Assembly: GCF_018780105.1 (NCBI RefSeq)
Contig: NZ_JADMKC010000005.1
Span: forward strand, 16,482-80,481
Length of the DNA: 64,000 bases
Reading direction: 5' to 3'
DNA from: Thiobacillus sp.
GTDB taxonomy: Bacteria > Pseudomonadota > Gammaproteobacteria > Burkholderiales > Thiobacillaceae
Shown: in pieces, positions 32,771 to 38,054 of the stretch
How the letters are laid out: every line of letters starts with the position of its first letter
Position numbering within the stretch: the first letter of the stretch is position 1
Made by a program: the position numbers and the translations under genes
Notes under the pieces: model-generated
Databases searched by the model: none
What the model was told of the DNA's origin: nothing
The model's input: only the letters and a program-made list of their open reading frames with translations

Positions 32771-35700
32771 ATGACCCGCATGCTCACCATCGACGGCAAC
32801 GAGGCCGTTGCCCGCATCGCCTACCTCGGCAACGAGATCATCGCCATTTACCCGATCACGCCGGCGTCCAGCATGGGCGAATGGGCCGACGAATGGGCAT
32901 CGCAGGGCCGGCCCAATTTGTGGGGTGCGGTGCCGACCATCATCGAAATGCAGTCGGAAGGGGGCGCCGCCGGCGCATTGCACGGCGCGCTCACGTCCGG
33001 CGCGCTGGCGACCAGCTTTACCGCCAGCCAGGGGCTGCTGTTGATGATCCCCAACCTGTACAAGATCGCCGGCGAGTTGACGCCTTTTGTGTTGCATGTG
33101 GCAGCGCGGACGCTGGCGACGCACGCACTGTCGATCTTTGGCGACCAGTCCGACGTCATGGCCTGCCGCGCCACCGGCTGCGCCATGCTCGCCGCAAACT
33201 CGCCGCAGGAGGCGCAGGATTTCGCGGTCATCGCGCAGGCGGCCACGCTGGCCGGGCGTATCCCGGTGATTCATTTCTTCGACGGCTTCCGGACCTCGCA
33301 CGAGGTGGCGAAGATCACCGCGGTGGAAGCCGATAGCGTGCGCGCCATGCTCGACGCTGATTTGATCGCGGCGCATCGCGCCCGCGCGCTGTCACCCGAG
33401 CATCCGGTGTTGCGCGGCACCTCGCAGAACCCGGACGTGTTTTTCCAGTCGCGCGAACGCGCCAACCCGTTCTACGACCGTTTTCCGCAGATCGTGCAGG
33501 ACGCGATGAACCGCTTCGGCGAATTGACCGGGCGCCATTACACGCTGTTCGAGTATGTCGGCGCGGCCGACGCCGAGCGCGTCATCGTGCTGATGGGGTC
33601 TGGCGCCGAGACGGTGCACGAGACGGTCGATCATCTGCTGGCCCGCGGCGAAAAAGTGGGGGTGTTGAAGGTGCGGCTGTACCGGCCATTTTCGCCAACT
33701 GCATTGCTGGACGCGCTACCGCACACCGTAACATTCATCGCCGTGCTCGACCGTTGCAAGGAGCCGGGCGCCGACGGCGAACCACTCTACAAGGACGTGG
33801 TGACCGCATTGGCGCAGGCGGCGGCGGACGGCGCGCGCAGCATGCCGCGTGTCATCGGCGGCCGCTATGGTCTGGCGAGCAAGGAATTCACGCCCGGCAT
33901 GGTGAAAGCGGTGTTTGATGCGCTGCGCGCTCACTCTCTCCCCAGCCCCTCCCCTCTCAAGGGGGAGGGGCTTGATGTCCCCTCTCCCTTGAGGGGAGGG
34001 GGTGGCCCGCAGGGCCGGGAGAGGGTGGGCGCGCAGCGCCAGGATGGAGTGAAACGCCAGTTCACCATCGGCATCGACGACGATGTCACCCACCTGTCGC
34101 TGCCGTGGGACGAGACGTTCCGCACCGACGCGTCGCGCCAACTCCAGCATGCCGTGTTCTGGGGGCTGGGCGCAGACGGCACGGTGTCGGCCAACAAGAA
34201 CTCGATCAAGATTCTCGGCGAAGCCACCGACCTGCAGGCGCAGGGCTATTTTGTCTACGATTCGAAGAAATCCGGTGCGGTGACGGTATCGCACCTGCGC
34301 TTCGGACCGGCGGCGATCCGTTCCACCTATCTGATCGAGGCGGGCATGGCCGGCTTCGTCGCCTGCCATCAGCCGGTGTTCGTCGAGCGCTATGACCTGT
34401 TGGCACATGCCGCACCCGACGGGGTGTTTCTGCTCAACACCCCGGCGCCGCCGGATCAGGTGTGGGATAGCTTGCCCGAGACTATGCGCGCGCAGATCCG
34501 CGACAAGCGCCTGCATCTGTGGGTGATCGACGCCTACGCCGTGGCCGCCGAGGCTGGCATGGGGCGGCGCATCAACACCATCATGCAGACCTGCTTCTTC
34601 GCCATCTCTGGCATCCTGCCGAAAGACGAAGCGATCGCCGCGATCAAGCATGCGGTCGACAAGACCTACGGTAAAAAAAGCAAGCGCCTGGTCGAGCTGA
34701 ATTACCGCGCCATCGATACGACGCTGGCGGAGTTGCATCAAGTTGTCATCCCGGCGGATACCCTGAAGGGCACAAGCGCCGGGATCCAGTCGGATGAAAA
34801 ACGCTGGGCCCCGGCGTTCGCCGGGGTGACGGATGTCCCCGACTTCGTGCGCGATCTCACCCTGCCGATCTACCAGGGTCACGGCGATCGTCTGCCGGTG
34901 TCGTTGCTGCCGGTAGATGGCACCTATCCGCTGGGCACCGCGCGCTACGAAAAGCGCAACATCGCGCTGGAAATCCCGGTGTGGGAAGCTGACATTTGCA
35001 CCCAGTGCGGCAAGTGCGTGTTCGTCTGCCCGCACAGCGCGATCCGCGCACGCGCTTTCAGCGCTGAAGCTGCAGCCCACGCGCCGCCGGGCTTCAAGCA
35101 CGTGCCGGCCAAGAGCAAGGATTTGCCAGCCGGCACCCGCATCAGCTACCAGGTCGCGCCGGAGGACTGCACCGGCTGCGGCGACTGTGTCGAAGCCTGC
35201 CCGATTCACGACAAGTCGAATGTTTCTCGCAGGGCGGTGAACATGGCGCCGGTCGGCCCCTTGCGCGATCAGGAGCGCGACAATTTCACTTTCTTCCTGC
35301 GCCTGCCCGAGTTCGACCGTAGCATGATTAAGCATGGCACCCTCCCGGGTTCGATGCTGCTCGACCCCTTGTTCGAGTTTTCCGGCGCCTGCGCCGGCTG
35401 CGGCGAAACGCCCTACATCCGTCTTGCCACGCAACTGTTCGGCGACCGCATGCTGGTCGCCAACGCCACCGGGTGTTCGTCGATCTACGGCGGCAATTTG
35501 CCCTCCACACCCTACACGGTGAACGGCGCCGGGCGCGGTCCGGCGTGGAGCAATTCGCTGTTCGAGGACAACGCCGAATTCGGCCTGGGCATGCGGCTCG
35601 CTGCCGACCAGCTGATGGCGTATGCGAAACAGCTGGTGCGTGAACAGGCGAACGACATCGGTGGCGACCTGGCCGAGGCACTGGTCAACGCCGACCAGCG

Positions 35701-36478
35701 CGAGGAGGCGGGCATAGTTGAACAGCGCGGCCGCGTTGCCCTGCTGCTCGACAAACTGGTGGCCTCCCGCCACCCGCGCGCGAAGGAATTCACCAGCGTC
35801 GCCGAATGGCTGATCCGCCGCTCGGTATGGATCATCGGCGGCGACGGCTGGGCCTACGACATCGGCTACGGCGGACTCGACCACGTGCTGGCGTTGCCGT
35901 ACGACGTCAACATCCTGGTGCTCGACACCGAGGTCTATTCCAATACCGGCGGGCAAACTTCCAAAGCGACGCCGATCGGCGCCGTCGCCAAGTTCTCTGC
36001 CGGCGGCAAGGCCACCGCCAAGAAAGACCTCGCCAAGCTCGCCAGCGACTACAGCCACGTCTATGTTGCAACCACGGCCTACGGCGCCAAGGACGTGCAG
36101 ACCCTGCGCGTGTTCCACGAAGCCGAGTCCTACGACGGCCCCTCGCTGATCGTCGCCTACAGCCCGTGCATCGCCCACGGCTACGACCTGCTCTACAACC
36201 AGCGCCAGCAGGATCTCGCAGTGAAGAGCGGGCACTGGCCGCTGTTCCGTTCCGACCCGCGTCTGGCAGAAGCGGGCGGCAATCCCTTCAAGCTCGATTC
36301 CGCCGCGCCGAGCCAGCCGATCAAGGCCTTCATGGAATCGGAAACCCGCTTCGCCATGCTGCAGCGCAGCCATCCCGAGGCCGCGCAACGTTTCCTGGAC
36401 CAGGCGCAGCAGGACGCCGAACGGCGCTTCAAGATGGTTCAGGACATGGCAGCGGCAGAGCGCAAGCCGGACAAGTGA
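32771..36478 (+). CDS. nifJ: Pyruvate:ferredoxin/flavodoxin oxidoreductase
   Basis: IYPITPAS, MQSEGGAAG, GLGADGT, CTQCGKC, CTGCGDC, ACAGCGE, ANATGCSSIYGG, GGDGWAYDIG; two non-canonical in-frame insertions. Confidence 0.97.
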   Translation: MTRMLTIDGNEAVARIAYLGNEIIAIYPITPASSMGEWADEWASQGRPNLWGAVPTIIEMQSEGGAAGALHGALTSGALATSFTASQGLLLMIPNLYKIAGELTPFVLHVAARTLATHALSIFGDQSDVMACRATGCAMLAANSPQEAQDFAVIAQAATLAGRIPVIHFFDGFRTSHEVAKITAVEADSVRAMLDADLIAAHRARALSPEHPVLRGTSQNPDVFFQSRERANPFYDRFPQIVQDAMNRFGELTGRHYTLFEYVGAADAERVIVLMGSGAETVHETVDHLLARGEKVGVLKVRLYRPFSPTALLDALPHTVTFIAVLDRCKEPGADGEPLYKDVVTALAQAAADGARSMPRVIGGRYGLASKEFTPGMVKAVFDALRAHSLPSPSPLKGEGLDVPSPLRGGGGPQGRERVGAQRQDGVKRQFTIGIDDDVTHLSLPWDETFRTDASRQLQHAVFWGLGADGTVSANKNSIKILGEATDLQAQGYFVYDSKKSGAVTVSHLRFGPAAIRSTYLIEAGMAGFVACHQPVFVERYDLLAHAAPDGVFLLNTPAPPDQVWDSLPETMRAQIRDKRLHLWVIDAYAVAAEAGMGRRINTIMQTCFFAISGILPKDEAIAAIKHAVDKTYGKKSKRLVELNYRAIDTTLAELHQVVIPADTLKGTSAGIQSDEKRWAPAFAGVTDVPDFVRDLTLPIYQGHGDRLPVSLLPVDGTYPLGTARYEKRNIALEIPVWEADICTQCGKCVFVCPHSAIRARAFSAEAAAHAPPGFKHVPAKSKDLPAGTRISYQVAPEDCTGCGDCVEACPIHDKSNVSRRAVNMAPVGPLRDQERDNFTFFLRLPEFDRSMIKHGTLPGSMLLDPLFEFSGACAGCGETPYIRLATQLFGDRMLVANATGCSSIYGGNLPSTPYTVNGAGRGPAWSNSLFEDNAEFGLGMRLAADQLMAYAKQLVREQANDIGGDLAEALVNADQREEAGIVEQRGRVALLLDKLVASRHPRAKEFTSVAEWLIRRSVWIIGGDGWAYDIGYGGLDHVLALPYDVNILVLDTEVYSNTGGQTSKATPIGAVAKFSAGGKATAKKDLAKLASDYSHVYVATTAYGAKDVQTLRVFHEAESYDGPSLIVAYSPCIAHGYDLLYNQRQQDLAVKSGHWPLFRSDPRLAEAGGNPFKLDSAAPSQPIKAFMESETRFAMLQRSHPEAAQRFLDQAQQDAERRFKMVQDMAAAERKPDK
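33920..34039. repeat. 120-bp imperfect palindromic element inserted in frame in nifJ
   Basis: Outer 11-bp perfect IR GCGCTGCGCGC/GCGCGCAGCGC enclosing an inverted pair of CCCCTC(T/C)CCC..GGGGAGGGG units; 40 codons, no stop. Confidence 0.8.
34745..34831. repeat. 87-bp REP-like doublet inserted in frame in nifJ
   Basis: GTCATCCCGGC...GCCGGGATCCAG (34745-34789) and CTGGGCCCCGGCGTTCGCCGGGGTGACG (34804-34831); first unit 40/45 identical to the reverse complement of 36856-36900. Confidence 0.88.
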
Positions 36479-36762
36479 AACAGCCCTGCGTTTATATGCT
36501 GGCGAGCCAGCGCAACGGCACGCTCTACATCGGCGTGACGTCCGACCTGATCAAGCGGGTGTGGGAGCACAAGCAGGATCTGGTCGAAGGATTTACCAAA
36601 AAGTATGGCGTGCATGATCTGGCCTGGTTTGAACAGCATGCGGACATGCTGACCGCGATTGCGGGGGAGAAGACGCTCAAGGAATGGAAGCGGGCGTGGA
36701 AACTGGAGCTGATCGAGAAGATGAATCCTGAATGGAAGGATTTGTATGCAGGGCTGGTTTAA
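36475..36762 (+). CDS. Stand-alone GIY-YIG nuclease (95 aa)
   Basis: GTG overlaps the nifJ stop (GTGA); VYMLASQRNGTLYIGVTSDLIKRVWEHK...EKTLKEWKRAWKLELIE..NPEWKDL. Confidence 0.88.
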   Translation: MKQPCVYMLASQRNGTLYIGVTSDLIKRVWEHKQDLVEGFTKKYGVHDLAWFEQHADMLTAIAGEKTLKEWKRAWKLELIEKMNPEWKDLYAGLV

Positions 36763-36796
36763 GGGTTTTCAGGCGAAGGCCAGGTCGTCTGATTTT

Positions 36797-36999
36797 CTGG
36801 ACCCCGTGTCGTGGCACGGGGTGACGAACAATAAGGCTGAGGCTTTTTTGTCTGTCTGGGTACCGGCCCTTGTGCCCTTCAGGGTATTCGCCGGTATGAC
36901 GTCAGCTACAGGCTACTTCTCATGCACGCCACGACAGCGGAGCAAGTACAGACGCCCCTTGCATCCCGCCGTCACCCCGTGCCACGACACGGGGTCCAG
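36797..36999. repeat. Cluster of CGTC-type palindromic (REP-like) repeats
   Basis: Perfect 30-bp IR (36797-36826 / 36970-36999), long-loop unit 36856-36901, degenerate unit 36919-36946 sharing GCCACGACA. Confidence 0.88.
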
Positions 37000-37040
37000 C
37001 CAATTAAAACAGCCCAGCAACTGAATTTCAGGAGCCCCGC

Positions 37041-38054
37041 ATGATCGATCTCTCCACCGACTACCTCGGTCTCACACTCAAAAACCCGCTGGTGCCCTCG
37101 GCCTCGCCGCTGTCGAAAAACATCGACACTGCGCTGCGGCTGGAAGACGCCGGCGCCGCCGCGCTGGTGATGTATTCCCTGTTCGAGGAAGAATTGCGGG
37201 CGGAAGACGCGATGACGGATCGCTTCCTGCTGCATTCGGGCATTGGGCACGGCGAGGCGGATGGGTTCCTGCCTGATGGCGGTGATTTCCAGGGCGGGCT
37301 GGAACGCTATCTGTCGCACTTGCATCAGCTCAAGCGGCGGCTGGAAATCCCCGTGGTCGCCAGCCTCAACGGCGTCTCCCCGTCCGGCTGGGTGGAACTC
37401 GGCCGCGAATTGCAACAGGCCGGTGCCGATGCCCTGGAGCTCAACGTCTATCACGTGGCGGCCGACATGCAGCAATCCGGCGCCGAGGTGGAGGCCCGTT
37501 ACATCGAGCTGCTGACCGAACTGCGTCAGGTGGTGAGCCTGCCCATCGTGATGAAGCTGTCGCCGTACTTTTCTTCGCTGCCGCATTTTGTGAAGCAGCT
37601 GGAAATGGCTGGGGCAAACGGTGTCGCGCTGTTCAATCGCTTCTACCAGCCCGACATCGACCTCGAAGCATTACGCATGGTCGATCAGCTGCACCTGTCA
37701 CATCGCGACGAGGCGCTGCTGCGCATCCGCTGGATCGCCATCCTGCATGGCCGCACCCGCCTCACGCTGGCGGCCACGGGTGGCGTTCACGGCCTGGACG
37801 AAACCCTGAAACTGCTGCTGGCCGGCGCCGATGTGGTGCATCTCGCCTCCTGCCTGCTGCAGCATGGGCCCGACAAGCTGACCGAAATCCTGGCGTTTTT
37901 GCAGAACTGGATGGAAGAGAAGGAATACGAATCGGTCGCGCAACTGAAAGGCAGCATGAGCCAGCAAAACCTGCCCGATCCTTCGGTGCTGGCGCGTGCG
38001 AGTTATTTGCGCGTGCTGGACAGCTTTACGACGCGACCGGGCGTGTGGTCCTGA
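37041..38054 (+). CDS. Dihydroorotate dehydrogenase-like flavoprotein
   Basis: YLGLTLKNPLVPSASP, SLFEE, ALELN, MKLSP, FNRFYQPDID, ATGG. Confidence 0.88.
   Translation: MIDLSTDYLGLTLKNPLVPSASPLSKNIDTALRLEDAGAAALVMYSLFEEELRAEDAMTDRFLLHSGIGHGEADGFLPDGGDFQGGLERYLSHLHQLKRRLEIPVVASLNGVSPSGWVELGRELQQAGADALELNVYHVAADMQQSGAEVEARYIELLTELRQVVSLPIVMKLSPYFSSLPHFVKQLEMAGANGVALFNRFYQPDIDLEALRMVDQLHLSHRDEALLRIRWIAILHGRTRLTLAATGGVHGLDETLKLLLAGADVVHLASCLLQHGPDKLTEILAFLQNWMEEKEYESVAQLKGSMSQQNLPDPSVLARASYLRVLDSFTTRPGVWS

Follow-up and report, generated by a model that had tools for sequence, protein, structure and literature searches.

Repetitive extragenic palindromic (REP) repeats are usually tied to HUH tyrosine transposases (RAYT). 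Another pairing of a nuclease with short hairpins, the Ssn nuclease and its NTS/SRM repeats, was described by Chenal et al. (Nat Commun 2025;16:2388; PMC11893778), and here we report what is very probably a further member of that system in Thiobacillus sp., on a 64,000-nucleotide stretch of contig NZ_JADMKC010000005.1 (positions 16,482 to 80,481 of the forward strand; assembly GCF_018780105.1) that we call the window. In the published system NTS is defined as CGTCATTCCCGCGMAVGCGGGAATCYRG, together with a degenerate SRM motif, and SRMs flank 71% of ssnA homologues; SsnA itself, 94 aa long with one GIY-YIG domain (cd10448), acts on single-stranded DNA (ssDNA) only, which it binds and cleaves on one strand, directly upstream of the hairpin; it does not cleave double-stranded DNA (dsDNA), and in N. 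meningitidis it requires the triad Y6, Y17, and E64 for cleavage (PMC11893778). Neisseria has hundreds of NTS copies, only 2% of which are intragenic in N. meningitidis; strand-transfer activity is not known for Ssn, and the NTS-ssnA-NTS arrangement has already been likened to insertion sequences, to IS200, and to RAYT/REP (PMC11893778). The initial annotation of the window proposed that a small GIY-YIG gene and the palindromic repeats around it belong together as a RAYT/REP-like system with a different fold. This idea is not new, since Chenal et al. (PMC11893778) demonstrated and discussed exactly such a pairing, but the cross-genome association tests given below support it.

We conclude, with a probability of roughly 85%, that positions 36475-36762 encode a GIY-YIG ssDNA endonuclease of the Ssn family and that the GTCA-hairpin-CCAG units of this genome are its cognate SRMs, of the Neisseria NTS/dRS3 type. 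The source genome is a 3.3-Mb draft with 62% GC (G000 in our comparison set, in which relatives are coded G001 onward and loci carry L numbers; its contigs carry C numbers, and the window lies on C29). The features at the locus are as follows, with all SRM assignments putative.

32771 to 36478, forward: nifJ, for pyruvate:ferredoxin(flavodoxin) oxidoreductase (PFOR), 1235 aa; from the open reading frame list, with Pfam matches POR_N, PFOR_II, POR, EKR, Fer4, and TPP_enzyme_C
34745 to 34789, forward: long-loop SRM unit, in-frame in the PFOR interdomain linker; 9-bp stem, -11.3 kcal/mol, fold z = -3.0
34759 to 34776, forward: 18-nt loop module TACCCTGAAGGGCACAAG, which encodes TLKGTS; absent from the orthologous G025 unit (GCGGA^CGCC)
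34804 to 34831, reverse: SRM unit, the other half of the nifJ doublet; fits the published SRM motif, 7-bp stem, z = -2.8
36475 to 36762, forward: ssn-type gene for a single-domain GIY-YIG nuclease, 95 aa; GTG start within a GTGA overlap with the nifJ stop
36769 to 36792, no strand assigned: weak hairpin with a T-run behind it, perhaps a reverse unit that has decayed and serves as a terminator; z = -1.8
36797 to 36826, reverse: SRM unit CGTCACCCCGTGCCACGACACGGGGTCCAG; fits the SRM motif, 8-bp stem, z = -2.6; a 100% identical inverted copy of 36970-36999
36856 to 36900, reverse: long-loop (~20 nt) SRM unit with the 18-nt module at 36869-36886; z = -1.15
36970 to 36999, forward: SRM unit, from the hairpin scan and its fit to the SRM motif
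36996 to 37018, forward: relic copy of the cassette leader and first ssn codons (CCAG..AAAACAGCCCAGC); a direct repeat 78% identical to 36467-36489
37041 to 38054, forward: dihydroorotate-dehydrogenase-like (DHOD-like) gene; Pfam DHO_dh

Like the Neisseria Ssn/NTS system, the Thiobacillus locus combines a single-domain GIY-YIG protein of ~94 aa with oriented units of 27 to 30 nt (CGTCAYYCC..GGRRTCCAG); inverted units bracket the gene, solo and paired units are scattered elsewhere, and the hairpin co-varies with the nuclease. It differs in its host, a free-living chemolithotroph with ~13 units; in its upstream unit, which appears to have been absorbed and lost in the nifJ tail, with ssn translationally coupled to nifJ; and in its long-loop units, which contain an 18-nt insert, and the doublet translated inside PFOR. 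By homology with the characterized enzymes, the Thiobacillus protein should bind the hairpin only as ssDNA and only on the CGTCA...TCCAG strand, and its cut would fall a few nucleotides to the 5' side of the hairpin.

The sole Pfam match of the 95-aa protein (P0001) is to GIY-YIG (PF01541; E = 5.9e-13, residues 4-77), and a DNA-binding extension is absent. An AlphaFold2 model built from a 63-sequence alignment, used instead of an 11-sequence input that gave a predicted local distance difference test score (pLDDT) of 53, reached a pLDDT of 96 with the topology bb-a-a-b-a-a-a, and its best Foldseek matches in the PDB are all GIY-YIG domains (UPF0213 protein 1zg2, Slx1, and UvrC); a sequence search of the PDB recovered only spurious WD40 matches and no deposited Ssn structure. 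Y7, Y18, R28, and H32 are the same in all of 63 homologues and E65 in nearly all (>=90%), and Y7, Y18, and E65, paired by position only, match the catalytic triad Y6/Y17/E64 of N. meningitidis SsnA. As a proxy for Ssn kinship, homologues 63 to 72% identical to P0001 have flanking units that agree exactly with the NTS consensus (e.g., L066, L086, and L115). Judged from its homologues, the GTG at 36475 is the correct start of ssn, because these proteins open with MKQPCVY and the 88-aa call on record, from the ATG at 36496, loses the first catalytic tyrosine; the 95-aa gene coupled to the nifJ stop by the GTGA overlap, as first noticed in the annotation, is therefore retained at 36475-36762.

The repeat family has the generic unit CGTCATTCCGGCGAAAGCCGGAATCCAG. 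A genome-wide scan for stem-loops between GTCA and CCAG with six or more base pairs in the stem, combined with BLAST, places ~13 units at 6 loci, mainly as inverted doublets; the nonpalindromic CGTCA and TCCAG flanks are kept in all copies and give each unit an orientation, and the stems span 7 to 9 bp. Four units have DNA-fold z scores of -2.6 to -3.0, against -1.15 for the intergenic long-loop unit at 36856-36900, and the stretch at 36901-36969 folds no better than shuffled sequence (z = -0.04). The units at 36797-36826(-), 36970-36999(+), and 34804-34831(-) fit the published motif HGTCWYN(0-2)YYVSBRHN(0-5)WNVSBRGN(0-2)RNCYNB, whereas those at 34745-34789 and 36856-36900 miss it because their loops are ~20 nt. 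Downstream of ssn the initial annotation had counted four units, two in each orientation; a set of units does lie there, but only three are intact (two reverse and one forward, all within 240 nt), and 36769-36792 is at best a decayed one. At orthologous loci an intact reverse unit lies directly 3' of the ssn stop, where 36769-36792 lies here, and terminator-like matches such as this one show no excess over shuffle expectation. The reported likeness of 34745-34789 to the reverse complement of 36856-36900 proved exact at 40/45 positions and extends to 53/66 (genome-wide BLAST E-value 4e-8), with one compensatory stem change, C6-G to A6-T. Between the two identical inverted 30-mers sits a 105-nt module (36797-36901) that is inverted relative to G010, being 85/105 identical on the opposite strand compared with 51 in a same-strand control. 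In G001, G010, and L063, too, the last forward unit has the relic leader sequence on its 3' side.

The association of gene and repeats holds across a sample of 80 loci homologous to ssn, drawn from many phyla and with protein identities of 58 to 89%. A unit lies within 300 nt of the gene at 75 of them, on both sides at 49, and the usual layout is a forward unit 12 to 17 nt 5' of the start codon and a reverse unit 0 to 2 nt 3' of the stop. In the 300 nt nearest the gene, units number ~2 to 3.5 per kb, compared with 0 to 0.3 (mostly 0.05 to 0.2) beyond 600 nt, a 10- to 70-fold excess over the outer flanks; the enrichment near GIY-YIG homologues that had been named beforehand as a test is thus strong. 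Among relatives, all loci whose protein is at least 64% identical have units within ~300 nt, and no units were found near YhbQ-like GIY-YIG loci (33 to 39% identical). The hairpin beside more distantly related paralogues in G010, G025, and G027 is another one, GTCATTGCGAG...CAATCCAG. The expectation that repeat sequence would co-vary with nuclease phylogeny was borne out as well, in that units of one stem class, CCGG or CCCG, group together on the Ssn protein tree, with 9 changes versus 20.9 in shuffles, none of 500 of which gave a number as low. In the four Thiobacillus genomes with ssn there are 7, 9, 38, and 28 strict units, and 25 of 36 others have none. On every feature of Ssn membership that could be tested (single domain, triad positions, flanking hairpins, motif, and oriented stable hairpins) the locus agrees with the family.

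Several observations weigh against this assignment. The upstream unit is absent from the source genome, being intact in the G001 orthologue; the tie of P0001 to N. meningitidis SsnA comes from residue position and not from direct alignment; and the long-loop units do not conform to the published motif, which allows a loop of no more than 5 nt. The loose published motif is also not enriched genome-wide (28 matches versus 24.5 +/- 2.5 in Markov simulations): at 62% GC it is uninformative, and only the strict hairpin form stands out. Finally, G003, whose assembly is 99% complete, has 36 strict units but yielded no homologue of Ssn at E <= 1e-5, so the units can persist without needing the nuclease gene.

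The history of the locus can be read at the nifJ/DHOD junction, where ssn is syntenic in four Thiobacillus species (G000, G001, G010, and G025) and which, when compared for empty sites as had been suggested, is empty in 11 relatives. In these the nifJ stop lies 1 to 3 nt (usually 1) from the DHOD start codon, the junction reads ...CCATGCCGACGAATCGAAACCCGGAGCCTGACATG, and 9 of the 11 share a similar tail, ...CCATGCCGACGAAnCnAAACCCGGAGCCTGACATG; against these empty relatives neither a target-site duplication nor a clean boundary is present. The four occupied genomes are not sisters on the PFOR tree, and at least 4 changes are therefore needed. In the source genome ssn is single-copy; its DNA identity between occupied genomes is 84 to 89%, compared with 80 to 91% for the flanks, and its dN/dS of 0.05 to 0.11 at dS 0.4 to 1.0 points to strong purifying selection. 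By these measures ssn here is an old and functional gene, present once and polymorphic for presence or absence among genomes; because its divergence equals that of its flanks and its dN/dS is low, we rejected a recent insertion at the junction. The initial annotation had seen a selfish unit inserted between nifJ and the DHOD-like gene; single copy, synteny, flank-like divergence, and purifying selection leave that description unsupported.

The following course of events would account for the present arrangement. In some Thiobacillus the usual cassette of forward unit, ssn, and reverse unit sits between nifJ and the DHOD-like gene, and its forward unit would have been absorbed into the C-terminal tail of nifJ. 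In G001 the forward unit encodes the last PFOR residues, and its counterpart in the source genome has decayed; ssn would have become translationally coupled to nifJ. Today ssn looks like an old, selected, single-copy resident, and SRM units persist at 6 loci, mostly as inverted doublets, one of them tolerated in-frame in a poorly conserved interdomain linker of PFOR.

That doublet had been recognized from the start, and it is a true one: 34745-34789(+) and 34804-34831(-) are translated in-frame as VIPADTLKGTSAGIQSDEKRWAPAFAGVT, a stretch of 29 aa between LAELHQV and PDFVRDL. The distant species G025 has the same doublet in its PFOR minus the 18-nt loop insert (VIPADAGIPSDEKRWAPAFAGVT), and in G012 and G030 a doublet sits at a slightly shifted offset, in another reading frame (DVARHAGAGRHPAEIELDSGVRRND); most PFOR orthologues have a native-looking linker. 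Since G025 shares the nifJ doublet, it is not a product of fresh local seeding, and the earlier suggestion that the element seeds repeats locally is not supported here. We also considered whether the PFOR linker of the whole genus descends from a decayed doublet and rejected this, as in six genomes from beyond the genus (one from its own family and five from others) the PFOR linker has the same, usual length and starts with V-x-(V/I)-P-A. Because these outside genomes share the native linker, the doublet replaced it and lengthened it by ~9 aa. The native linker coding sequence resembles half a unit, which may favor recombination at this site. Rickettsia palindromic elements offer a parallel, in that a housekeeping enzyme tolerates a palindromic repeat in-frame, at its surface or in a linker; the PFOR insert differs from them in being shorter (87 nt), in belonging to the SRM family, and in occupying a native linker without adding a new segment. 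The translated doublet is an unusual side effect.

The 18-nt module TACCCTGAAGGGCACAAG has three exact copies (34759-34776, 36869-36886(-), and C51:166124-166141), two of them in SRM loops. The C51 copy adds TLKGTS in-frame to a YhcH/YjgK/YiaL-like gene, an insertion absent in nearly all other Thiobacillus orthologues examined and found at the same codon in the non-sister G036; its flanks resemble a 5-nt target-site duplication, AGTAC..AGTAC in G000 and AGCAC..AGCAC in G036. Copies of the module occur at 18-nt spacing in G009 and G012, and other small elements contain related forms, among them one inserted at the nifJ tail in G005, G009, and G032. In these three genomes (L142, L145, and L194, respectively) a different element of ~65 nt, with the core GCACCCTGAAGGGCATAAAG, lies in-frame in the nifJ C-terminal tail directly 5' of a conserved CCATGCCGACGAA, and G009 adds a REP-like hairpin, GTGGTTGTAGAGCCGACAAGTCGGCAACAACCAC. 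Within nifJ of the window, 33920-34039 is a second, unrelated C/G-run palindromic element translated in-frame (...ALRAHSLPSPSPLKGEGLDVPSPLRGGGGPQGRERVGAQRQDG...); G005, G025, G030, and G034 have insertions at the same point, and G001 and G028 have another insert of 18 aa ~40 residues upstream of it. Thiobacillus PFOR seems to collect small in-frame repeats.

We weighed several other explanations of the locus. That it is an active, selfish REPtron-like transposon, in which the GIY-YIG nuclease mobilizes itself and the units, inserted at the junction, and seeds copies nearby, is in our view unlikely. The inverted hairpin ends hugging the open reading frame give an insertion sequence-like layout, and units nested within the loops of other units (L005, L007, and L025), doublets lying in-frame within genes, the patchiness of ssn in the genus, and a junction occupied in four non-sister lineages with at least 4 changes all speak for this reading; proteins 63 to 75% identical in unrelated phyla imply horizontal spread. 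Yet ssn has one copy per genome, is syntenic, and is as diverged as its flanks (which indicates no recent movement here), and no target-site duplication or clean boundary was found at the junction or at a short doublet on C14, so that the marks of an insertion sequence are missing. Strand-transfer activity is, moreover, not among the known properties of Ssn (PMC11893778), and on C37 a larger element encloses the long doublet. At C37:244425-244610 two units around a central hairpin form part of a ~170-nt element resembling a miniature inverted-repeat transposable element (MITE), inserted where the next gene downstream has its start codon. Its terminal inverted repeats are of the ATCCAT type and it has a 5-nt duplication, ATGAA, which suggests that another transposase may move units as passengers. 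An element with similar ends and different cargo occupies the same ATGAA in G010, and the outer sequence of the C37 element (ATCCATTAGCC) also precedes units in another family (L025). The short C14 doublet (C14:233819-233900, type-1 SRM) leaves no clean empty-site footprint or target duplication in comparison with relatives; its orthologous spot in G025 (L229) holds a doublet of the other type, GTCATTGCGAG...CAATCCAG, and the spot is empty in most other relatives compared (G022, G003, G005, G001, and G030).

Homing enzymes with a GIY-YIG domain are well known, and occupation of the same junction in four non-sister lineages is what a free-standing one, cutting the empty nifJ-DHOD dsDNA and copied by repair with the hairpins incidental, might produce; we consider this highly improbable, because the protein is a single 95-aa domain without a DNA-binding extension, ssn is no less diverged than its flanks, and homologues in many unrelated contexts are nonetheless hairpin-flanked (75/80). 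Characterized relatives spare dsDNA (PMC11893778). To the reading that the units are RNA-level terminators or attenuators of the nifJ operon and that the coding copy resembles them by chance, we give very little weight: there is a terminator-like hairpin 3' of the ssn stop, but Rfam yielded no match, the units stand on both strands with conserved CGTCA and TCCAG flanks, the 53/66 match to the coding copy (E-value 4e-8) is hard to credit to chance, and the terminator count is not above that of shuffles. Almost no credence can be given to ordinary REPs driven by a RAYT of the HUH Y1 type elsewhere, with the GIY-YIG gene an unrelated neighbor. The genome does have two Y1_Tnp (IS200/RAYT-like) genes side by side, with 351 and 286 codons, at C24:178298 and C24:180236 (C24:178298-180562), and the window, as initially stated, has no Y1/RAYT gene; a RAYT elsewhere with these same repeats had been named as the result that would overturn the pairing, and neither gene has them, there being no GTCA-hairpin-CCAG unit within 1.5 kb of either. 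The units also lack the GTAG-type head of REPs, and the GIY-YIG association across phyla is very strong.

The preferred reading, an Ssn nuclease with its SRMs, still invites comparison with these transposase-linked systems. REPs and BIMEs with their RAYTs (REPtrons and REPINs) likewise consist of short hairpins with an oriented head and frequent inverted doublets, and a RAYT too is a single-copy, vertically inherited nuclease gene bordered by its own repeats; here, in contrast, the fold is GIY-YIG and not HUH, the head is GTCA and not GTAG, and strand-transfer chemistry is not known. As in IS200/IS605, a hairpin would be recognized in ssDNA and cleaved a short distance away, as predicted for the Thiobacillus protein by homology. 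IS200/IS605 elements have direct ends with both cuts on one strand, whereas the ends here are inverted, so that the predicted cuts fall on opposite strands, and there is no sign of transposition. A speculative and rather improbable extension is that Ssn-dependent cut-and-join may paste SRM units and TACCCTGAAGGGCACAAG into ssDNA at hairpin loops and SRM-like sequences; it would fit the nested units, the PFOR doublets in two frames, the junction occupied in four lineages, and the TLKGTS insertion in the YhcH-like gene of two non-sister species.

The doublets in two frames of the PFOR linker, the 18-nt loop module found in-frame elsewhere as well, and the inverted 105-nt module go beyond what has been published (PMC11893778). 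The locus very probably adds a further Ssn/SRM example, from a free-living sulfur oxidizer, and independently replicates the published association of nuclease and repeats. Of modest practical value, it supplies a candidate Ssn enzyme for ssDNA tools, one whose hairpin specificity is distinct (CACCCCGTG-type and long-loop units), and a natural case in which SRM doublets can become part of the interdomain linker of an enzyme. If the cut-and-join idea were true, Ssn would serve as the enzyme for a new type of ssDNA element, one that targets hairpins.

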